From Escherichia phage vB_Eco4M-7: DNA of 64,000 bases. The translations under genes and the position numbers were made by a program. This document shows, piece after piece, positions 11,578 through 59,213 of the stretch. Numbering within the stretch: position 1 is the stretch's first letter; the number at the start of each line of letters is the position of its first letter. The notes beneath the pieces are model-generated. The model saw nothing but the letters and a program-made list of their open reading frames with translations, was not told the origin of the DNA and ran no database searches. The DNA lies in sequence record MN176217. The stretch is one strand, 5' to 3'.

Positions 11578-13917
11578 TTATTTTGCTGCTTTCAGCGCGG
11601 CTATCTCTGCCTCGAGAACCTCGATGCGGTCCATCAATGCAAGAATAGCCTCGTGGTGCAGTGCTGCTGCTACGCCTGGTGTGTTGACAGATTTTATGTT
11701 ATCCAACGTCGAACCGTCGCGCAGAGTAACAGGCGATGACTGTGTTTCAGATACTGCTTCAGGAAAGTCTTTCTCTACATCCTGGGCGATGAAGCCAAAA
11801 CCGACGGAGCCATTAGTTTCCAGAGTCCATGCCACGCCTCTAATATTGCGCATCTTGACGAGTGGATCAGTGATCCGCTCAATGTTACTTTTAATACGTT
11901 CATCAGATATACTCCGCCACTCCTGACACCTTGCTATTCCATCGGAGCCAAAAAGATAAGAGGCCGCGCCGCCTGTCCCGCTGTAAACGTTCAATTGAGC
12001 GCGGTCCAGCGCGGTCGTGCTACTCCTTATGCCTCCGAGAATCCAGCTTCCGCTGTACCAGTCACCGCTGATTGAGTTTACAAAATTTCCTTCTGGAACG
12101 TTGGCATAGTTTTGAATCCTTATGGCGTTGTTTTCTGCAGCAGCAACGCCTACTGAATTAACTGGGGATGCAACAAGGTCTTTAGACCGGATATATGCAT
12201 CAACAAATATTGTTCCATCAGGGCGCAGAGTTCCAATCTGGGATGTGGAATTTGGCAACACCAATTTGCCATCTTGGTTAAATGCCCACTCTTGCACCCC
12301 ATTAGATATCACCGCACCTTGTTCAGATGTTAATCCATCAATCTTGCCGTATGCCTGCAAGAATGCTTGATACGCGATGTTCGTGCCAATCTTATATTCA
12401 GATTTTACACTACCGCCTCTGACAAGCGTTCCGGTTGCAGGTTTTACTGCGTCACCATTAATGACGCTCCAAGTCGTATTCGCGGCAACAAATCCACCAG
12501 ATGCACGAATCACCCAAACACCTTCAAAGGCATTAGGTCGAATTTCATTCGCATCATCACGTCCATAAGCGCCATTTGACAGCGATGCATCAAAGTTCAC
12601 GTCTACATAATAACCATCAGAAGTCCCGCGCATACTTCCAGCAGTTTTTACTATTTTTGGCTCAAATGCGCCATATCCTCGCGTCACGCCAGAGGTGCCG
12701 AATGCAGTAAGCATAGACACATTAGGTGAACCAGAAATATTTGGTGCAGCACTCTGCCTGACACGACCGTCGTTTGAAGATACACCTCCATCACCACGCC
12801 CGAATAAACCTGGGATTGAGCCTGCTTGAACGCCGTTGCGGTCTGGAACTCGAAATGTAGTTGTGCCGTTGCCTAATGAATACTTGCCGCGTTTCGCTGG
12901 GTCCGCTAACCAATCTGCATCAGCAATAGGCGAAAGCATTTGCGCATATGCCCAAAGTTCAGGCCAATCTGCACGATTGAGTAATTGGCCGTCAGAAACG
13001 ACTTCGTAAGGCTGGATGTAAGCACGACTGTCTCGCAAGTGGAAGTCGCCGACGCCATAGTTCATAACACCGTTCATGCTTGGGCCAACGGTGCCTGTGT
13101 TCACTAAGTTCTCAACCCAACGCTTGGTTGCAGCATCATAATCGTTTACCGGATCACCAGCAAGCGGAGTCGGCCCTTGTGGACGAATATTCAACCAAGC
13201 TTGAGCATTGTCTGCTGATCCTGTGCCGCCCATTGAAGTTGGAACGATGCTTTGATCAGCGACTTGTCCGAATCCAAAAGCAGACTTCATCCCCTGTATG
13301 GTAGTTTGACCTGTGCCGCCATTTGCGACTGGTATAACGCTTTGCGTGTTATAAACTTGAACCCAATCAGACCAGGATGATATATCGACGCTATACAACC
13401 TTTGGTATACTGTGTTTATCCAGTAAGGCGTGTATCTCTGCACACAGCTGTTCGTTGAAACTCCCGTTTGTAAAACTTCAAGTATTCCAGCTTGTTCTAC
13501 AGGATAGTTGAGTGCTGTTGACGCCCCAGCATTAGTCGGTTGGTAATATTGACCGAACCAGCTTCCGTTCAGCGCGTTAAGGTTTATGCCATTAGGAATT
13601 ACGCCAAAGTTTCGGACAGTACCCGTCAAAGTCGCGGCAGTAGTTCGAATGGAAAGCATATCACCAGCCGCCCAAGCACGCGCTGCAGTACCTTCCTGTG
13701 CACGCTGCACGGTCAGGACGTTTCCAACAACGGCTGTTACTGTGACGATTTCGAATTGGAGGCCTGTTGCGGCGTCAACGATTGTCGCCACTACACGCTC
13801 GTTTGCGCCCAAGGTCGGAAAGCCCGACCCTGAGCGAATTGTGATTGTGGTGTCTGAAGTCGTCGTTGGCTGAGCGAGCGCGACCTCAAAGTTGTTTTTG
13901 AATATTAGCCTTGGCAT
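11578..13917 (-). CDS. tail fibre/spike protein with C-terminal intramolecular chaperone (peptidase S74-like) domain
   Basis: 779 aa; Gly/Thr/Asn-rich fibre-like body; C-terminal SDERIKSNIERI...ALMDRIEVLEAEIAALKAAK resembles the autoproteolytic chaperone domain of phage fibres. Confidence 0.7.
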   Translation of the reverse strand: MPRLIFKNNFEVALAQPTTTSDTTITIRSGSGFPTLGANERVVATIVDAATGLQFEIVTVTAVVGNVLTVQRAQEGTAARAWAAGDMLSIRTTAATLTGTVRNFGVIPNGINLNALNGSWFGQYYQPTNAGASTALNYPVEQAGILEVLQTGVSTNSCVQRYTPYWINTVYQRLYSVDISSWSDWVQVYNTQSVIPVANGGTGQTTIQGMKSAFGFGQVADQSIVPTSMGGTGSADNAQAWLNIRPQGPTPLAGDPVNDYDAATKRWVENLVNTGTVGPSMNGVMNYGVGDFHLRDSRAYIQPYEVVSDGQLLNRADWPELWAYAQMLSPIADADWLADPAKRGKYSLGNGTTTFRVPDRNGVQAGSIPGLFGRGDGGVSSNDGRVRQSAAPNISGSPNVSMLTAFGTSGVTRGYGAFEPKIVKTAGSMRGTSDGYYVDVNFDASLSNGAYGRDDANEIRPNAFEGVWVIRASGGFVAANTTWSVINGDAVKPATGTLVRGGSVKSEYKIGTNIAYQAFLQAYGKIDGLTSEQGAVISNGVQEWAFNQDGKLVLPNSTSQIGTLRPDGTIFVDAYIRSKDLVASPVNSVGVAAAENNAIRIQNYANVPEGNFVNSISGDWYSGSWILGGIRSSTTALDRAQLNVYSGTGGAASYLFGSDGIARCQEWRSISDERIKSNIERITDPLVKMRNIRGVAWTLETNGSVGFGFIAQDVEKDFPEAVSETQSSPVTLRDGSTLDNIKSVNTPGVAAALHHEAILALMDRIEVLEAEIAALKAAK

Positions 13918-46079: not shown

Positions 46080-46703
46080 TTATTGTCCTGTAACTTCTCT
46101 GATCACACGGTCTTCAAGTTCCAGCTTCTTTACCATTTTGCAGGAGTGCTCATAAGCTGGATCAGTAGATTTGATGAACGTTCCGTTGTACATGACACCT
46201 TTGCGGTCCTTGATGTCTTCGTAGGCCGCTTGCGCACAGTCGGATAAGCGAAGGCCATAATCATGAGCTACGCCGGAAAGGTAATCGACTGCGGCCATGA
46301 TGGTGACGTCAATATCCATGGTCTGATTCTTAGCAATAGCATCACCAAGCCGTCCAAGGGTCTTTGCCAGGCGAAGGATGAATGAATGAGGGTGAGCGCC
46401 TTTATCAGCACAACCGCCGCCATTAATGTTTTCGATTTCAGTACCGTTTTGCGCCGCCAGGATGGTCAACACAACAAGACAATCGCCAATGTCGTCCTTG
46501 ATTGCAGCTTGCAAGTCACAGATGGCCTGCTCTGTATATCCAATTTCAGGGTCGAAGAACACAAGGTCATGGAGTTGATCAACGTGGTCGGTTAACTCCC
46601 CAAACTCGCTGATAAGCTTCGGGTATTGGTCCTTAAGGTCGCAACCTTGGATGATGTTACGGTCAGAAGCCCACTGGCGAATGTTTGCATAAATCTGTTT
46701 CAT
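46080..46703 (-). CDS. MazG-like nucleotide pyrophosphohydrolase (all-alpha NTP-PPase)
   Basis: 207 aa; EFGELTDHVD and acidic helices. Confidence 0.45.
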   Translation of the reverse strand: MKQIYANIRQWASDRNIIQGCDLKDQYPKLISEFGELTDHVDQLHDLVFFDPEIGYTEQAICDLQAAIKDDIGDCLVVLTILAAQNGTEIENINGGGCADKGAHPHSFILRLAKTLGRLGDAIAKNQTMDIDVTIMAAVDYLSGVAHDYGLRLSDCAQAAYEDIKDRKGVMYNGTFIKSTDPAYEHSCKMVKKLELEDRVIREVTGQ

Positions 46704-50612: not shown

Positions 50613-51031
50613 GACAATTCCTCTAAATACTTGATGATGTGATGAATAGTTCCCTTCACGATTATCTCACGTTGAACGTCTGCAGTATTATAACGCTTTA
50701 ATTCAATCGAAGGGTGGACTAAATAAAACATCTTCTCAGAATCAACCTTAAGCAAAACGAATGATGGGTATCTCCAATCATTCCAAGAAGAAAGAAAGCT
50801 GCATTGACCTTTCTCAAATGCATTTCTGAAAGGTGCAGTGGTGGCCCTTGCAGGCCACGATTCAAAGAACTTCATTTCAAGCCAAAAGCCGCGCCCTTTC
50901 CGGTTGGTGCCGATTACGTCCGGCACGCCGTCACCCGTCATCGACTCGATTCGTTGAAGCTTCAATACTGATTCTGAGTGCTTCTTCAGGGGCACGAAAA
51001 TGTATTTTTGTTCACGGTTATTTGTTGCCAT
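50609..51031 (-). CDS. VRR-NUC domain nuclease
   Basis: ATG 51031 with AGGTG RBS; GDGVPDVIG...WLEMKF PD-ExK motif. Confidence 0.6.
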   Translation of the reverse strand: MATNNREQKYIFVPLKKHSESVLKLQRIESMTGDGVPDVIGTNRKGRGFWLEMKFFESWPARATTAPFRNAFEKGQCSFLSSWNDWRYPSFVLLKVDSEKMFYLVHPSIELKRYNTADVQREIIVKGTIHHIIKYLEELS

Positions 51032-53915
51032 CTGGATACACCTGTTTGATAACGTCGACGATGAACATGTCAATTCCTTCAAGCTTGCGACCTTTCATCA
51101 GGAAGAATGCGCCGTTCCCGACGTTTTCAGCAATGTATTTCCCGTACTTCTGGAACTTCTCTGGACGAATCCTGAAGCGCATTGGCGAGTCTGTCGAGTC
51201 GTCTTTGCACATAAGGTCGATGAACTGAGTCTCAAGCTTGTTCCCGTACTGGTCAAACTCTGCGTAGCGGCCATCAGCTTGAAGACCCTTTTTAAGCTTG
51301 CCGTGCTTTGTATAGATGCCGCGCTCAAGTCGTTTACGGATGCGTGTTGCTTCGTTCTCGTCCGCAAGCACTTTCTTTGTCAACTTGCCGATTACTATTG
51401 CACGCTCGTCATCGCCGACTTCCTTCATCTGGCGTATTGAAGCGCCGGACGTCACGCCAATCAGATAAGGGTCATTATATGCCCATCCGAACTTTGTGTG
51501 CATCTCTGTAAGGTCGCCATATTTTACTTCAGCAGCGGCCAATGCATCCTTCTGTTTTTGCGTTAATGTTCCGGCTTCGCGCGCTTCGATATACTTCATC
51601 GCCTTCACCATGCCGTACCCTTTCGCGTTCATAATGCCGCCGATTAGCTTTCCGTTCGCGATTGTCCAGTTCATTGAAGAGTGATCAGGGTCGATTGGAA
51701 CGTAATCCACGCCTTCCTTCGCAAGTTCACGTAATATCGCAATCGTCTGGTCTTCGTCCTTAGCAGCGCGTAAGCAGGCAGCGGCAAATTCCAACGGGTA
51801 GTGTCGCTTAAGCCACAATGTCCAGTAGGTCACGACCGCGTATGACACGGAGTGCGACTTGTTAAAGCCCCATGACCCGAACGTGGCCATCGCTTGCCAA
51901 AGCTTTCTTGCATCCGCTTCCGGTACGCCGTTATTTATTGCGCCTGCAACGAAGTCTTCGCCAAGCTTGTTAAAGTATTCTTCACCCTTACGGCCTGACA
52001 TTGCCTTACGTACAGCGGATGTTTTCGCCCAGTCAAATGAACCAATCTCTTTGACCACGGCCATGATTTGCTCTTGGTAAAGAAACACTCCGTAAGTCTC
52101 TTTTAAGTACGGCTCAAGCTGCGGCACGTCGTATTCAATCGGCGCACGCCCTGCCGCGCGTTCAATGTATTTCTGGGCCATACCGGACGACAACGGTCCA
52201 GGTCGACCAAGGGCTGTCAGGTTATCGATTTTGTTGAAGTTGTCAACGTGCACAAAGTTTGTCACTGAGCGTACAGCATCGCCTTCGAACTGGAAGATGC
52301 CTGACATCTTGTTTTCGTTAAGGATGTCAAGGACGCTTTGATCATCAAGCTTGATTCCGTAGAGCGTTTCAGCATCAATAACGCCTGTATCAGAAATAAT
52401 GCCGAGAGTACGAAGGCCCAGCGCATCAAGCTTCAAAAGGTTGAGGTATTCGCTGTCAGGCTTATCGATTTGCGCAATCCCTTCTGCAGTTACAGTACAG
52501 TAATCAGAGATTGGGTCATTACAAACAATGATTCCCGCTGCGTGCACCCCTGTGTGGGACGGGTGAATCTCAAGGTCACCCATGCAACGCGCGGCGTCAG
52601 GATATTTCGCCACGAACTCTTGGCCCGTGGTCGTTGTTGCAAAGGTATCCTCCAGGCCGTGACCATAACGGGCGTCACCGGATGAGTATTCAAGCAGTGC
52701 GTTTTTAATGTTGGCCGTTTCGTGGTATCCAATGTTGAACTTCTTACCAACCTGCGCCATTACTGAGTTGGCCTTAAGCGTGTTGATGTTGCCAAGCTTT
52801 GCAACGTTCATTTCGCCGTATTTCTCTTTAAGATAATCAAACACCATATAGCGTTTGGTATCTTCAAAGTCGATGTCGATGTCAGGAAGGTCGGCGCGGC
52901 TTACGTCGATGAATCGGGCAAACAGCAGCTTATACGGGATTGGGTCCACTTCCGTGATGCCGAGGCAATAGCAAACAAGTGAACCAGCCGATGAGCCGCG
53001 TGCAGGACCGACGAGCATTTTTGTTTTTGCGAATCGTACAAGGTCCGCTACCACCAGAAAGTATGAGTCGAAATCTTTCAGCTGAATCTGGTGAATTTCT
53101 TCGTTGAAGCGGTCCTCATATTCCTGAGTCCATTCTTTGATGTGACCTGCTTTTAGACGGTACTCCATCCCCTCGCGAGCAAGCTTTACCATGTCACCAG
53201 CAAGGTGAATAATCGGTGCCTTACGCAATTTCAAGTCAAGTCCGACTATGCCGTTTGCTATGTCAACAGCATTGGCCGTTGCCTGATCAAGTTCATCTTC
53301 AGTCAAGATGCCTTTAAGCTGTTTGCGCAAGTCTTCCACGCCAACGATGCAATGCGGCTTAACCGTATCGCGAACTTCCCAAGCATAAGCGAAGTCAACG
53401 TGCTCAGGAGAAGGCATGTGATTGTATCCGGTTAAAACCAGCGGCCTTCCACCGCTACAATGAGCCAATGCCTGGCGCTTTGCCAAAAGGAACGATGATG
53501 GGTTGACGTCTATATAGTCGTAGTCCTCTGGCCGCAGCAGCTCCACGGCACCGCCACAGAATTTAACGACGCCATCAAGCGCACCGAACTCTGCACGGGT
53601 AAGGCCGCCGCGCTGCGTTGCAAGTGTCGTAGCGTTGTAAAAAGATTTTAAGTCAAGGGCCAATATCCAAGCCTTCGGTTTGAATCCCTTTTTCGGGTCC
53701 GCATCAGGGTCGATGATTGGAATCTCCATTCCAAACATAGGCTTAATATCATTTTTCTGGCATTCCTTTTCCCAGCGAACGTGACCCCATGTGTTGTTAT
53801 CAACTAATGCCGCGACTTCGCAGCCCAACTCTTTGAGCCGTGCTATAATTTCAGGATGCCGTCCATAAACTTCTTTGAACGTGTAACCGCTGCGAACTCT
53901 CAATTGTGGAAACAT
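51018..53915 (-). CDS. DNA polymerase III alpha subunit (DnaE-like)
   Basis: 965 aa; N-terminal PHP-like LRVRSGYTF; continuous ORF. Confidence 0.75.
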   Translation of the reverse strand: MFPQLRVRSGYTFKEVYGRHPEIIARLKELGCEVAALVDNNTWGHVRWEKECQKNDIKPMFGMEIPIIDPDADPKKGFKPKAWILALDLKSFYNATTLATQRGGLTRAEFGALDGVVKFCGGAVELLRPEDYDYIDVNPSSFLLAKRQALAHCSGGRPLVLTGYNHMPSPEHVDFAYAWEVRDTVKPHCIVGVEDLRKQLKGILTEDELDQATANAVDIANGIVGLDLKLRKAPIIHLAGDMVKLAREGMEYRLKAGHIKEWTQEYEDRFNEEIHQIQLKDFDSYFLVVADLVRFAKTKMLVGPARGSSAGSLVCYCLGITEVDPIPYKLLFARFIDVSRADLPDIDIDFEDTKRYMVFDYLKEKYGEMNVAKLGNINTLKANSVMAQVGKKFNIGYHETANIKNALLEYSSGDARYGHGLEDTFATTTTGQEFVAKYPDAARCMGDLEIHPSHTGVHAAGIIVCNDPISDYCTVTAEGIAQIDKPDSEYLNLLKLDALGLRTLGIISDTGVIDAETLYGIKLDDQSVLDILNENKMSGIFQFEGDAVRSVTNFVHVDNFNKIDNLTALGRPGPLSSGMAQKYIERAAGRAPIEYDVPQLEPYLKETYGVFLYQEQIMAVVKEIGSFDWAKTSAVRKAMSGRKGEEYFNKLGEDFVAGAINNGVPEADARKLWQAMATFGSWGFNKSHSVSYAVVTYWTLWLKRHYPLEFAAACLRAAKDEDQTIAILRELAKEGVDYVPIDPDHSSMNWTIANGKLIGGIMNAKGYGMVKAMKYIEAREAGTLTQKQKDALAAAEVKYGDLTEMHTKFGWAYNDPYLIGVTSGASIRQMKEVGDDERAIVIGKLTKKVLADENEATRIRKRLERGIYTKHGKLKKGLQADGRYAEFDQYGNKLETQFIDLMCKDDSTDSPMRFRIRPEKFQKYGKYIAENVGNGAFFLMKGRKLEGIDMFIVDVIKQVYPDGNK

Positions 53916-54457
53916 TATTTACTCCAGATGTCATATACGCCAATTTGTTGGCAGACTTTGTGCAGTAATATTACGTCGTCTAATGCACGGTGTTTCTGTT
54001 CATATTTTCCGAAATATAATTCATACAGCTCTTGAAGCTTAACTCTTCGGCCAAAAATAGGCAAGGTTTGCTCAACTGTACAAATGTTTATTTCTGGAAA
54101 ATTAACATCATCAAGCGTAAGTCCTTCGCGCTGTAGTGCATAATCAAGAATGTTTTTATCGAACGCATGGTTGTGCGCGATAGTGGCATCCGTCTTCTTG
54201 AAGATTTCTTTTAGCTGCGGGACAAAATTGATGAATGGTGGATTGCACTCAAGGTCTTCATTTGTTAATCCGGTAATCTTTGTGATAATTTCTTCAATCA
54301 CGATTTCAGGATTAATTATGAATTCAAACGTTTCAAGAATCTCTTTGCCGTCTGTCAACAGACCTGCAAATTCAATAGGGCGCGGCTGCATCCCAAGCGG
54401 CGCTTTCGGGTGCACGGTCAATCCGGTTGTTTCGAAGTCATAAGGGAGAAATAACAC
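53915..54457 (-). CDS. DnaQ-like 3'-5' exonuclease
   Basis: 180 aa; Exo I motif YDFETTGL. Confidence 0.75.
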   Translation of the reverse strand: MLFLPYDFETTGLTVHPKAPLGMQPRPIEFAGLLTDGKEILETFEFIINPEIVIEEIITKITGLTNEDLECNPPFINFVPQLKEIFKKTDATIAHNHAFDKNILDYALQREGLTLDDVNFPEINICTVEQTLPIFGRRVKLQELYELYFGKYEQKHRALDDVILLHKVCQQIGVYDIWSK

Positions 54458-54511
54458 ATTAGCCTCCTACAAAAAGGCCGCCCATTAGGACGGCCACAGA
54501 TTCACGATTCG

Positions 54512-55063
54512 TTATACAGTGTACGGAGTACCGTCTTGATTCAAGCGCACGATAAACTTCAAATCAACGCCGATGATTTCACGCGTATCAAAGATCACAT
54601 AGTTGTAACGACGTTGACCAGCAATGTTCGGGTTGGTATGAGAGTCAGTTACAACTTCCTGTGCAACCTGAATGCCTTCTTCGCTAAAGAACTTACGCCA
54701 TTCAGCAAGTTCAGCGGCAGTTACGTGCATACCAAGATGGCTAACCTGATTGTCATGCGCATCGATATATTCGATGTTTTCGTTAATCCAGTTGCAACCC
54801 ATTGTGTAGTCAAGGATTTCAAGCTCAAGAGGCTTACCAGCGCCCCCATCAGTACCGTTGCCAGCCTGATAGTTGAAGCGCAAGTCAGCTTCATTGGTGC
54901 AATCGTCGCGACGACCTTTAAAGTCATCAGCTTCAAATACGCGACCAGTAGCAACAACATGATCATGGAACCATTCTGTCAGGCCGATTTTAGCCAAGAA
55001 ATCCTGTGCGCGCTGAGCATCTGGAATTGACAGGGCGATTTGTTCAATTTTAAAATGTGGCAT
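54512..55063 (-). CDS. hypothetical protein, possible VOC (glyoxalase-like) fold
   Basis: 183 aa; His/Glu pattern only; weak. Confidence 0.3.
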   Translation of the reverse strand: MPHFKIEQIALSIPDAQRAQDFLAKIGLTEWFHDHVVATGRVFEADDFKGRRDDCTNEADLRFNYQAGNGTDGGAGKPLELEILDYTMGCNWINENIEYIDAHDNQVSHLGMHVTAAELAEWRKFFSEEGIQVAQEVVTDSHTNPNIAGQRRYNYVIFDTREIIGVDLKFIVRLNQDGTPYTV

Positions 55064-55159: not shown

Positions 55160-55843
55160 TTATTTACCAAATGGAATATCAGTACCAGACATAAAGCGCC
55201 ATGCGCCCGTAATTAAGATATGGCGAATGAAGTCAGCAATTACTTGCGGCTCAGTCTCCAATCCATTCATCAATGCCTTTTTCTGGTATTCAGCGGCGTA
55301 TTCAGGAGTCCAGCCGCGAGTCGCGCAAACGGCATCTTCAATCTGTTTAGACATGCCAGTGCCGCGCAACTTGTTAGGACTAATAGAGAATACCGTGATG
55401 CCGTACTTAGGCGTAAGTTCGTGAGCCATCTGCTTGCTGATCATAAGCGCAGCAGCCTTGGATGCATTATAACATAAGCTGGACGTCATAGGAATATGCG
55501 CAGCGTTGGAAACAATGTTGATCACAAAGCCTTTGTTGTCGATAAGACTTTTCAGCGCAGCCTGAGTCGTGTTAACGAAAGAGAATGCGTTGGTGTGCAT
55601 AACGCGGTTAAACTCTTCATAGTTTACATCTTCAAACCAATTGTTAGAGTTGACACCAGCACAGTTGATCAAGCCTTCAACATCATATGGGCTTAAAATT
55701 TCTTTCATCTGTTTAGCATCGCGGACGTCATATCCGTATGCTGAATCGATGCCAAGCACGTTATGACCGTAAGCGCCAAGGGTGTCAAAAATAGATTTAC
55801 CAAGACCGGAATTGGAACCTGTTACAACAATTACTTTTTTCAT
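55160..55843 (-). CDS. short-chain dehydrogenase/reductase
   Basis: 227 aa; VVTGSNSGLGKS and YNASKAA (YxxxK). Confidence 0.7.
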   Translation of the reverse strand: MKKVIVVTGSNSGLGKSIFDTLGAYGHNVLGIDSAYGYDVRDAKQMKEILSPYDVEGLINCAGVNSNNWFEDVNYEEFNRVMHTNAFSFVNTTQAALKSLIDNKGFVINIVSNAAHIPMTSSLCYNASKAAALMISKQMAHELTPKYGITVFSISPNKLRGTGMSKQIEDAVCATRGWTPEYAAEYQKKALMNGLETEPQVIADFIRHILITGAWRFMSGTDIPFGK

Positions 55844-55910: not shown

Positions 55911-56786
55911 CTATTTATTGAAATTAATATTATGGGTGTTGACAAGACGTTCACACATGGCGCTATAAACACCATCGTCGTGTATCGAGTCTTCATGCTT
56001 CAGGCCGCTGATTGCGAAGCGTGTAAGCTTGACAATCTTAAGCTCGAACAGGTGCCACATGTGGTAGTCTTCCGGTGTCTTCAACGTTACGCCATTAGGG
56101 AACAACACCTGCATAACCTGACCTACCATCACAGCGTTATCGCCATAAACGGCATTGCGCTCACGGAAGGTCGCTGCCATCGCATCAAGAATATCAGCAG
56201 CGGTTGCTGGGGCTTGTTGTTCAACTTCAACAAGTTTAGTCTCTTCTTTTCCTGTTGCACTTGGATCAACTGCTAATTGTTGCACCACTTCACCTGCCTT
56301 GCAAAGATTAAATGTAAAGGCGATTTTATTTTGCGCCATGGAATTATAATGCAAAGCTTCTTCTTGCATCCGCGCGAGTACGTCTTGTCTATCTTCAAAT
56401 ACGTTGATTATTCGATAATCGCCGTGTCGCAATACATACGATAACCATGCAGATTTCATAACAGTTGATGGACGCTTGTCGCCATGTTCTCTCATCTTGA
56501 TTGTGAATTCATCAAAAGGGAAAACGTTGTCCAGACGTTCAAAAGTGACTTGTCTGTATTTTTCTGGTCTTGCAGTCCAATATTCAACCGCCTCACCGCG
56601 AAGTGATGCCGTCTCTACTGCTGACGCAATGTTAGGATAGAACTGATCATAACCAATGCCGCTGTGGTAATCATCATAGTCGGACAACGGGCCTGCCACC
56701 CTGATACGGTCTAAGCGCCAACGGTCATCAAACAGAGTTCCGTCAAGGTCGAATACGTTTAAGATTTGGTTATTTTTGATACTCAT
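55911..56786 (-). CDS. HAD-superfamily hydrolase with C-terminal extra domain
   Basis: 291 aa; motif I VFDLDGTLF; C-terminal ~130 aa of unknown type. Confidence 0.55.
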   Translation of the reverse strand: MSIKNNQILNVFDLDGTLFDDRWRLDRIRVAGPLSDYDDYHSGIGYDQFYPNIASAVETASLRGEAVEYWTARPEKYRQVTFERLDNVFPFDEFTIKMREHGDKRPSTVMKSAWLSYVLRHGDYRIINVFEDRQDVLARMQEEALHYNSMAQNKIAFTFNLCKAGEVVQQLAVDPSATGKEETKLVEVEQQAPATAADILDAMAATFRERNAVYGDNAVMVGQVMQVLFPNGVTLKTPEDYHMWHLFELKIVKLTRFAISGLKHEDSIHDDGVYSAMCERLVNTHNINFNK

Positions 56787-57586
56787 CCTTTTGATACTCC
56801 ATCTTTGGCAACTGGATTATTGGTGATTGGCATCGCATCCCAAAACTGGATGCGCAACTCTTCTTGCTGTGCAGTGGTATCCATCCAATCACGATACCAT
56901 GGGCAATGGGCCTTACCGTGACGAGGAAATGCGCACTTACCCATACCGATGCACTGCGGCTGTAGTAAAGGATTGGCCCACGGGTGCACCTTAAGGACTT
57001 CCGCAACCATTGCACGGAATACTTCTTGATACTCGCCTTGAGTACGCGTGCACAAGCGGTTAGAGGCCATTTGTTGTAGAGTGCGCAAGTTGAACTTTGC
57101 CATGATATGCGTTTGCATATTAGAAGGCAACACGGCACGTGCATCTTGAATCTCTGCGCCAGCCGCGCGAAGTTCTTGGTATAGGGCGTCAATGGTTGCC
57201 ATTGCATCATCCCATTTCTCTGCCAGTTCAGCAGCCTTCTCGTCATGACGAGTCCATCCCTTTGGATCATCCTCTGGGTAAGTAAATTTGGCAGGACGAA
57301 TCGCATCAAACGCTGATGACTCTTGAGCGCGGCTTGTGCGTTCTTGATATGCACCTGTTCGTGTGCGCACCATCTGATGAGTCATATTCTTTGATACATC
57401 AGTGATGTCAAAGATATAGTCAACAAAGTCGAAAGGTGACTTGATGGTGTCAAGCATGTAGCGCCAGTGCTCTTGCTTCTCTGATTCTGTCATCTCAGAG
57501 ACGGGCTTGCCAGTCATGCGCGTGTTCTTTGTTTCCAGCAAAAGGTCAAGTGCATCTTGGGTGTATCGAATTAATTCAACTTTCAT
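56783..57586 (-). CDS. ThyX-like protein with divergent active-site motif
   Basis: 267 aa; SPFDFVDYIFDITDVSKNMTHQMVRTRTGAYQERTSR parallels ThyX ...[35 protein letters not shown], with RHR replaced by RTR. Confidence 0.5.
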   Translation of the reverse strand: MKVELIRYTQDALDLLLETKNTRMTGKPVSEMTESEKQEHWRYMLDTIKSPFDFVDYIFDITDVSKNMTHQMVRTRTGAYQERTSRAQESSAFDAIRPAKFTYPEDDPKGWTRHDEKAAELAEKWDDAMATIDALYQELRAAGAEIQDARAVLPSNMQTHIMAKFNLRTLQQMASNRLCTRTQGEYQEVFRAMVAEVLKVHPWANPLLQPQCIGMGKCAFPRHGKAHCPWYRDWMDTTAQQEELRIQFWDAMPITNNPVAKDGVSKG

Positions 57587-57599
57587 TTTAATTATCCTA

Positions 57600-58046
57600 T
57601 TAACGGTAGTTAACTAGTTGCTGATCACCAGAGAAGGTGCAATGATAAACGAATTGTGCGTTATAAAGCAACTGAAAACTTTTCTTTGGTTCATTATTAG
57701 AACTCATTGATGTAAAGATTTCTGCACCAGAACGGTTTTCACCAATAAGGTTTATAAAGCCGCCAGTTGAACGAGGTTGGACGAAAGTGAAACGTTGCAT
57801 CCACGGAGTGCGGTTGGCACCTTTCCCTGTGAATCCCTGAATCTGAATATTCAGACCTTCTTGCTCGTTCACACCGATGTAAGTGGTAATTGTTGCGCCA
57901 GTCGTCGCTGCAGTCTTGCCGTCCATCGCTTCGCAATCGTAAACAGCGATTGAATCGGAAGTACGGACAGCGGCTTCAGTCGCTTCCATATACATGGTTC
58001 CGAGAATAGCAGTTGCGGCAAGCGCGATTCCAGTGATGCGTTTCAT
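57600..58046 (-). CDS. secreted hypothetical protein
   Basis: 148 aa; signal-peptide-like MKRITGIALAATAILGTMYMEATEAA; two Cys. Confidence 0.5.
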   Translation of the reverse strand: MKRITGIALAATAILGTMYMEATEAAVRTSDSIAVYDCEAMDGKTAATTGATITTYIGVNEQEGLNIQIQGFTGKGANRTPWMQRFTFVQPRSTGGFINLIGENRSGAEIFTSMSSNNEPKKSFQLLYNAQFVYHCTFSGDQQLVNYR

Positions 58047-59186: not shown

Positions 59187-59213
59187 AAAAAAGACCCACA
59201 ACAAGTGTGGGTC
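59187..59213 (-). terminator. rho-independent terminator (minus strand)
   Basis: GACCCACA/TGTGGGTC stem preceded on plus strand by A6. Confidence 0.6.

Follow-up and report, generated by a model that had tools for sequence, protein, structure and literature searches.

A ThyX-like protein with an RTR motif in Escherichia phage vB_Eco4M-7: a candidate non-canonical thymidylate synthase of viruses

What is made by a flavin-dependent thymidylate synthase homologue in which the central histidine of the signature motif is replaced? This question is raised by a gene of Escherichia phage vB_Eco4M-7 (sequence record MN176217), a Wifcevirus coliphage of which a stretch of 64,000 nucleotides, referred to as the window, was analysed. 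The gene lies at 56783..57586 on the minus strand, and an initial annotation made from the letters alone had described its product as ThyX-like, with the RHR motif changed to RTR. With middling confidence, the gene is assigned here to a functional but non-canonical ThyX-family enzyme, a one-carbon transferase that acts on C5 of deoxyuridine monophosphate (dUMP) and makes thymidine monophosphate (dTMP). It belongs to a group of sequences named class II for convenience. Between positions 54000 and 60000, the window shares 100% identity with Escherichia phage vB_Eco4M-7n and 99% with vB_EcoM_WFC (WFC).

Family membership and active-site residues

The open reading frame (ORF) is preceded by a ribosome-binding site (AGGA, 9 nt 5' of the ATG) and contains both protein strings quoted in the initial annotation, FDFVDYIFDIT and HQMVRTRTGAYQERTSR. 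Residues 5-203 of the protein match Pfam family PF02511 (Thy1) over profile positions 2-191 of 191, with an E-value of 1.2e-30 and 107.1 bits against a gathering threshold of 24.8 bits, and PHROG 85 (thymidylate synthase) is matched with an E-value of 5e-38. An AlphaFold (AF2) model with a predicted local distance difference test score (pLDDT) of 83 was compared by Foldseek with the ThyX crystal structures 1O27, 1O26 and 2AF6, and the predicted fold matched them far above chance (E about 5e-10, best 4.5e-10; target-normalised template modelling scores 0.64-0.75). Profile, PHROG and predicted fold thus bear out the family assignment of the initial annotation. The features of the gene are given below, with residues of the Thermotoga maritima enzyme (TmThyX) marked Tm and those of the Mycobacterium tuberculosis enzyme marked Mtb.

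56783..57586, minus strand: ThyX-like (class II, non-canonical) flavin-dependent thymidylate synthase homologue, 267 amino acids; ATG-to-stop ORF, PF02511, PHROG 85, ThyX fold
57425..57445, minus strand: I48..F54 (DTIKSPFDF), equivalent of Tm H53..H59 (GHETPFEH); both His lost, S50 kept
57359..57367, minus strand: R74-T75-R76, equivalent of the ThyX RHR motif (Tm R78-H79-R80) by phmmer alignment to TmThyX
57326..57337, minus strand: T84-S85-R86-A87, equivalent of Tm S88-G89-R90-Y91 by alignment; phosphate-binding Arg kept, lid Tyr changed to Ala
56903..57052, minus strand: four Cys (C179, C212, C218, C228), invariant in an alignment of 37 relatives; putative metal site

Residues were mapped by a phmmer search of the protein against PDB sequences. 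The alignment places QMVRTRTGAYQERTSR on TmThyX, with R74-T75-R76 on R78-H79-R80, T84-S85 on S88-G89 and R86 on R90; further equivalents are R150 (Tm R147), R168 (R165), R177 (R174) and Q183/E185/Q187 (Q180/E182/Q184). The RTR reading is confirmed by the minus-strand codons CGC ACA CGA at 57359-57367. According to a passage in PMC2826268, the ThyX motif was defined as RHR-x7-S by Myllykallio 2002. In its place, the phage protein has R74-T75-R76-x7-T84 followed by S85, and no RHR occurs elsewhere in its 267 residues, so that the exchange of RHR for RTR noticed at the outset holds.

The initial annotation had also stated that the nucleophile Ser position reads T-S. The position is correct, as T84-S85 falls on Ser88; the role as nucleophile does not stand. 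Following work attributed to Koehn et al. 2009, Ser88 is reportedly no longer regarded as the catalytic nucleophile of ThyX. Among 150 relatives the position holds S, T or A, which fits the view of Ser88 as a non-nucleophile, and S88A and S88C mutant ThyX structures are among the PDB matches.

The equivalents of the residues that contact dUMP are kept, namely R74, R76, T84/S85, R86, R177 and K66 (Tm R78, R80, S88, R90 and R174; Mtb R87), and they are invariant or nearly so in alignments of the class II clade. For flavin adenine dinucleotide (FAD), S50 (Mtb S71), R168 (Mtb R190) and both Arg of the motif are retained and the central His is Thr; R150 is conserved as well. The roles of these residues in ThyX have been described (PMC6514825, PMC3498832), and from their retention it is inferred that the phage protein would bind both FAD and dUMP. 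The RHR motif hydrogen-bonds the adenosine monophosphate phosphate, the ribityl chain and the flavin mononucleotide phosphate of FAD. This role was found described only in PMC6514825, and a literature search on the roles of His79 and His53 yielded nothing useful.

Compared with canonical ThyX (T. maritima TM0449, 1O26; M. tuberculosis, 2AF6/3GWC; mycobacteriophage L5 gp48), the protein shares Pfam family and fold, both Arg of the R-x-R motif and the equivalents of Tm R90, R147, R165, R174, Q75, Q180 and E182, whereas it differs in RTR, in the exchanges H53 to I, H59 to F, Y91 to A and H178 to R, and in a C-terminal extension that completes the set of four Cys. Overall identity to TmThyX is about 21%, and a tblastn search with TmThyX as query misses the gene at E <= 10. 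By tblastn, the 64-kb window contains no further thymidylate synthase of either type, and none is annotated in related genomes; the best tblastn match to an E. coli ThyA query had an E-value of 0.47. Both a canonical RHR motif at another place and a further thymidylate synthase in the window were ruled out.

Of the four Cys, C179 lies two residues past the dUMP-binding R177, and C212, C218 and C228 belong to the extension. The set occurs in about 85 of 150 representatives, including some of canonical type, one of which derives from an archaeal metagenome-assembled genome (MAG). The aligned sequences of solved ThyX structures have no Cys at the C179 position. PDB alignments of the phage protein, like those of a canonical four-Cys relative, end short of the extension with these Cys, and no solved structure covering it was found. 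The four Cys may form a Zn or Fe-S site near the dUMP-binding Arg.

A virus-restricted class with constant gene partners

Relatives were sought among 1.84 billion cluster representatives (50% clusters), which gave 1624 matches at E <= 1e-3 and 363 at E <= 1e-10. The best 150 of the 1624 were aligned, and the residues at four positions were as follows.

T75 (Tm H79, centre of R-x-R): T in 71, H in 33, Q in 14, S in 10, N in 7
I48 (Tm H53): I, L or V in 120 of 135; H in 12
F54 (Tm H59): F in 115
A87 (Tm Y91, lid Tyr): V, T, F, A, I or L in nearly all; Y in 13

The residues at the four positions change together, the phage protein having I, F, T and A at Tm H53, H59, H79 and Y91. The few representatives with His at both His positions also carry RHR and the Tyr and are of canonical type. 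The lid Tyr is confined to such relatives, and V, T, A, I or F takes its place in the non-canonical clade. At the level of aligned residues, the remaining sequences form the coherent non-canonical class that is called class II.

Within this class, conservation is strong. R74, T75 and R76 are invariant in the 37 aligned relatives, whose identity to the phage protein goes down to 58%, and about 80 positions are invariant over this range, including every substrate-binding Arg and the four Cys; the substrate-binding residues are still conserved at about 30% identity. Phages of Wifcevirus, Erwinia and Serratia have homologues with 80-100% identity, and homologues of about 49% identity are found in some 290 records of the Pseudomonas genus Pbunavirus, including the PB1-like phages F8 (48.6% by tblastn), 14-1 (49.0%) and LMA2. 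A sequencing or strain artefact as the source of RTR was ruled out, as the motif is invariant across the genus and beyond.

To what extent the class is viral was assessed by scanning 185,579 prokaryotic species, with one genome each, for a sequence pattern. Only five loci were found, all on MAG contigs, and the three closest carried the same phage cassette. As far as a pattern-based scan can tell, RTR-type class II is thus restricted to viruses. In 80 IMG/VR loci with class II relatives (40-61% identity), RTR was present in 79 of the ThyX-like genes and I48 and F54 in all 80. Several class II genes from metagenomes are interrupted by inteins; ten long homologues contained, apart from inteins, only one small phage domain, which gave no functional hint.

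In the window, the gene is the third of a six-gene unit on the minus strand, bounded by two strong hairpins and followed by an exonuclease and a DNA polymerase gene.

59193..59213, minus strand: intrinsic-terminator-like hairpin 5' of the UGM-like gene, upstream limit of the unit; also an annotated terminator in phage WFC
58112..59107, minus strand: UDP-galactopyranose-mutase-like (UGM-like) FAD flavoprotein, 331 amino acids, N-terminal GxGxxG; constant upstream neighbour of the ThyX-like gene
57600..58046, minus strand: hypothetical protein of 148 amino acids with a signal-peptide-like N-terminus; variable slot between the UGM-like and ThyX-like genes
55911..56786, minus strand: HAD_PNKP-type phosphatase (N-terminal) fused to DUF6378 (C-terminal); PF25109 E 3.6e-7, PHROG 4889
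55160..55843, minus strand: short-chain dehydrogenase/reductase (SDR; FabG-like), facultative; Pfam adh_short E 2.6e-31
54512..55063, minus strand: weak glyoxalase/VOC-superfamily protein, facultative; Glyoxalase_4 E 0.004, below its cut-off
54476..54495, minus strand: intrinsic-terminator-like hairpin after the VOC-like gene, downstream limit of the unit; also an annotated terminator in WFC
53915-54457, minus strand: DnaQ-like exonuclease, by annotation of phages WFC and Mansfield and tblastn co-occurrence
51018-53915, minus strand: DnaE-type DNA polymerase, by the same evidence

The UGM-like protein had no match in sequence searches of Pfam, NCBIfam or PDB, and fold comparison alone was informative. 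It is most similar to a sugar-nucleotide flavoenzyme, with protoporphyrinogen and amine oxidases scoring nearly as high; identity to UDP-galactopyranose mutase (Glf) itself is only 17%, the resemblance being one of fold. The start of the HAD/DUF6378 gene overlaps the ThyX-like stop by 4 nt (ATGA), which implies translational coupling of the two. DUF6378 was recognised in 14 of 16 homologues of this protein, and a comparison of the domain with PDB by single sequence and profile gave only chance matches. The DUF6378 half is also the best-conserved protein of the cassette, reaching 82% identity where the ThyX-like protein has about 54%, and it is retained in loci that have no HAD half. For the 148-amino-acid protein, neither a family match (Pfam, PHROG, NCBIfam) nor a homologue in the 80 related loci was found. 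Its slot is a variable 'moron' position within the conserved operon, occupied in Pbunaviruses by five small ORFs.

When the 80 loci were searched with the window proteins by tblastn, the UGM-like gene was found upstream of the ThyX-like gene, at a distance of 0.8-2.5 kb in most loci and of up to about 7 kb in the others, where the contig reaches that far. DUF6378 lies downstream in 72 loci, and the other eight end no more than about 1 kb past the ThyX-like gene. In almost all loci the cassette comes with the exonuclease and DnaE, and the HAD domain, the SDR and the VOC protein are facultative; the SDR is present in about half of the loci, is lacking in Pbunavirus and adjoins the ThyX-like gene in mycobacteriophage Benzema. 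In Pbunavirus F8 and 14-1, UGM-like ORF65 and HAD/DUF6378 ORF57 flank ThyX-like ORF59 in the same order as in the window. Within class II, the ThyX-like and UGM-like genes form an obligate partnership.

Relatives with another residue at the motif centre occur in comparable settings. Rhizobium phage Y65 (206 kb) has the same trio beside genes for dUTPase and ribonucleotide reductase, with the motif RNR and no Cys, and in a 40-kb Vibrio podophage the UGM-like gene stands with a ThyX-like gene of the RNR type and with a gene for a HAD protein, in which the DUF6378 query did not match the C-terminal domain. In actinophages, the ThyX-like gene (RQR, four Cys) adjoins DnaE, FabG-like and MazG-like genes, and a UGM-like gene is lacking within 5 kb. 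Gordonia phages likewise have MazG-like genes together with the ThyX-like gene.

These data do not support the initial suggestion that the change from His to Thr by itself marks a switch of activity. The centre varies between T, H, Q, S and N, and RNR and RQR occur near dUTPase and ribonucleotide reductase or near DnaE. Thr, Ser, Asn and Gln could all keep the bond to the FAD phosphate, so that the exchange alone is weak evidence for a new activity. As judged from the alignments, it rather flags a real, large and virus-only ThyX subclass with a remodelled folate and lid region. The broader idea of functional divergence was in part strengthened, namely by the covarying block, the score below the cut-off of TIGR02170, the UGM-like neighbour, the restriction to viruses and the thymidine derivatives of Pbunaviruses; the single substitution is undiagnostic.

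dTMP or a modified nucleotide as product

For a product of dTMP, the following scheme can be drawn. The protein would bind dUMP and FAD at a tetramer interface and would pass a one-carbon unit from methylene-tetrahydrofolate (CH2-THF) via the flavin to C5 of dUMP, giving dTMP for DnaE-based phage replication. Thr75 replaces His within the motif that binds the FAD phosphates and ribityl chain, as the normal state of a virus-only clade in which the residues on the side of folate and nicotinamide adenine dinucleotide phosphate (NADPH; Tm H53, H59, H79) and the lid Y91 are replaced jointly. The enzyme would probably no longer work alone and would act with the UGM-like flavoprotein encoded next to it, which could be the source of reducing equivalents or perform the following step; the translationally coupled HAD/DUF6378 protein is probably a second partner.

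This assignment is preferred because every contact to dUMP and FAD named in the literature is kept, because the genomic setting is one of nucleotide supply and replication (exonuclease and DnaE, and in Y65 dUTPase and ribonucleotide reductase), and because no other thymidylate synthase was found in the 64-kb window or in the annotations of relatives. A centre that always holds a hydrogen-bonding residue (T, S, N, Q or H) fits a retained contact with the FAD phosphate. The inteins in some homologues add support, as they are typical of essential replication or nucleotide enzymes. About three quarters of the thymidines in Pbunavirus DNA stay ordinary T, so that thymidine triphosphate is still needed.

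Several observations speak against dTMP as the product. The protein scores 83.1 bits with TIGR02170, the NCBIfam thyX equivalog, below the cut-off of 87.9. The lid Tyr (Mtb Y108, Tm Y91), which screens dUMP C5 and flavin N5 from solvent (PMC6514825), is A87 in the phage protein. The folate-stacking His is lost, being replaced by I48; Tm His53 lies on the folate/NADPH side of the flavin, and H53A and H53D folate-complex structures are among the PDB matches. A plain thymidylate synthase would have no obvious need for an invariably linked UGM-like flavoprotein, the hosts already possess ThyA, and class II was not found as the resident enzyme of any cellular genome. A literature search found no assayed member of the class, and the phage ThyX that is said to have been tested biochemically, L5 gp48, is fully canonical (H..H, RHR, SQRY). 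Linkage to the UGM-like gene, the low TIGR02170 score and restriction to viruses also set class II apart from canonical ThyX in general.

The most serious alternative, still a tentative one, is that the protein is a flavin-dependent dUMP hydroxymethylase or C5-(alkoxy)methyl transferase, whose nucleotide of the 5-hydroxymethyldeoxyuridine (5-hmdU) type would feed a DNA-protective thymidine hypermodification. It draws on findings in related phages. DNA of Pbunavirus F8 and 14-1 resists enzymes with TG-containing sites and contains in each phage one novel thymidine-derived nucleoside, of mass 362 and 390, that replaces about a quarter of T (Yee et al., bioRxiv 2025, PMC12191111). The modification is confined to TG dinucleotides, the remaining T is plain, and no free 5-hmdU peak was reported. 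According to the same authors, Pbunaviruses have none of the genes by which hypermodification is normally recognised, and the biosynthetic genes are unknown (PMC12191111). By arithmetic, both masses equal 5-hmdU (258.2) plus a tetritol (122.1) or a pentose (150.1) minus water, which points to an O-linked substituent on the C5-CH2 group. Both phages carry the homologue flanked by the UGM-like and HAD/DUF6378 genes. Wifceviruses resist restriction enzymes as well, the cause not being known, and the window holds 14 EcoRI and 6 EcoRV sites, with 26.6% of its T preceding G.

As to the chemistry, the enzyme would form the exocyclic-methylene dUMP intermediate of ThyX, to which, owing to the loss of the lid Tyr and His53, water or a sugar hydroxyl would add in place of the flavin hydride. 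Handling of the sugar would fall to the UGM-like flavoprotein and removal of a phosphate to the HAD domain. Acid trapping of the ThyX reaction is documented to give 5-hmdUMP, the corresponding product (PMC3498832), and the exocyclic methylene is the kind of electrophile captured by nucleophiles in other hypermodification steps (PMC8989533). Covariation of four active-site positions, including the solvent-shielding Tyr, the likeness of the constant partner to a sugar-nucleotide flavoenzyme, the lack of a ThyA-type hydroxymethylase in the window and the confinement of the subclass to viruses point in the same direction. As the lid Tyr is lost and the operon also encodes a sugar-mutase-like flavoenzyme as well as a phosphatase, it is legitimate to propose a hydroxymethylase or alkoxymethyl transferase.

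On the other hand, the confinement to TG needs a sequence-reading step at the level of DNA, whereas 5-hmdUTP in the nucleotide pool would lead to random or complete replacement, and a free 5-hmdU peak is missing from the Pbunavirus report. Pfam, PHROG and NCBIfam scans recognised neither a kinase nor a glycosyltransferase in the cassette, and a 5-hmdU DNA kinase was likewise not recognised there. The same cassette stands beside dUTPase and ribonucleotide reductase in the Rhizobium phage, a setting of ordinary nucleotide metabolism, and the substrate-binding residues are those of a dUMP enzyme. No ThyX-family hydroxymethylase was found in the literature searched.

Known systems offer partial parallels. 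ThyA-family phage hydroxymethylases acting on dUMP or deoxycytidine monophosphate (dCMP; SPO1, T4 gp42, the M6/ViI pathway; PMC8989533) would share the net reaction if 5-hmdUMP were the product, but they have an unrelated fold and use a cysteine nucleophile instead of the flavin relay of the ThyX family. The known thymidine hypermodification pathway includes a 5-hmdU DNA kinase (5-HMUDK) and aGPT-Pplase; neither was recognised in Pfam and PHROG scans of 30 ORFs or in the annotations of relatives, no search aimed at them having been made. The enzymes TrmFO, RlmFO and MnmEG, which act on C5 of RNA uracil, use like ThyX a relay from CH2-THF via flavin N5 to uracil C5, and for MnmEG it was proposed that glycine captures the exocyclic methylene (PMC8989533), a logic similar to that of the hydroxymethylase route. 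They have a GidA-type fold, act on polynucleotides and show no sequence relation to the phage protein.

In its most specific form, this alternative would make the cassette of UGM-like, class II ThyX-like and HAD/DUF6378 genes the missing route to sugar-linked 5-hmdU in phages of the Pbunavirus and Wifcevirus type, with the first dUMP hydroxymethylase or alkoxymethyl transferase of the ThyX family and a UGM-like protein that delivers or reshapes the pentose or tetritol. So detailed a route is doubtful, slightly more so than the general idea. A comparison of F8 with 14-1 over 18.9 kb showed cassette genes that are 80-96% identical and strong divergence only in ORF70 (57% protein identity versus more than 90% elsewhere) and in the HAD/DUF6378 linker. 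ORF70 has Cys-x2-Cys pairs, a coiled-coil-like sequence and no obvious enzyme character, and no homologue of it is present in the Wifcevirus window.

It is unlikely that the enzyme acts on another pyrimidine (dCMP, uridine monophosphate or dUTP) or runs the last step of ThyX in reverse, where oxidised FAD would take a hydride from the methyl group of dTMP and the resulting exocyclic methylene would capture water or a sugar. The remodelled active-site block would be in line with either, and the partner also has a likeness to protoporphyrinogen and amine oxidases, enzymes that act by dehydrogenation of activated CH2 groups. Other substrates are known among ThyX homologues, as PolB of polyoxin biosynthesis methylates uridine monophosphate. 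R177 (Tm R174) is unchanged, however, as are the other contacts to uracil and phosphate, which points to dUMP, and we know of no precedent for the reverse reaction.

A catalytically dead ThyX relic with a structural or regulatory role is highly improbable: the lack of the canonical motif and the score under the equivalog threshold would suit it, but the roughly 80 invariant positions with the substrate-binding Arg and the four Cys, and the conservation down to about 30% identity, are not expected of a dead enzyme.

The distinction between the preferred dTMP synthase and a hydroxymethylase is of consequence, as the ThyX-like gene is the only homologue of a pyrimidine-C5 enzyme in Pbunavirus and Wifcevirus genomes and is linked to a sugar-mutase-like flavoprotein. 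If dTMP is the product, a large, virus-only and partner-linked ThyX class exists whose chemistry would be unlike that of the drug-target enzyme at the folate site and lid, and the textbook RHRx7S motif would not be required in the family. If 5-hmdUMP is the product, hydroxymethyl-pyrimidines would have a second, independent enzymatic origin based on ThyX and not on ThyA, and the gene would be a genomic marker for a new DNA modification.

Other genes and sequence composition of the window

Elsewhere in the window, a Pfam scan of ten further ORFs gave only a tail-fibre chaperone domain. A 779-amino-acid ORF at 11578-13917 (minus strand) ends in a Peptidase_S74 chaperone domain (E 2e-11), marks a tail fibre or spike gene and lies on the strand opposite to the main structural block. 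At 46080-46703 (minus strand), a MazG-like pyrophosphatase is encoded between the ligase and spanin genes, and its C-terminal part matches PHROGs described as "DNA-binding protein".

In base composition, the TA dinucleotide has an odds ratio of 0.69. XbaI sites (TCTAGA) occur once where about 18 are expected, and HindIII sites (AAGCTT) occur 57 times against an expectation of about 18; the latter are scattered and share no extended flanking motif. For FspI and PstI, whose sites contain TG/CA, the over-representation is about twofold.

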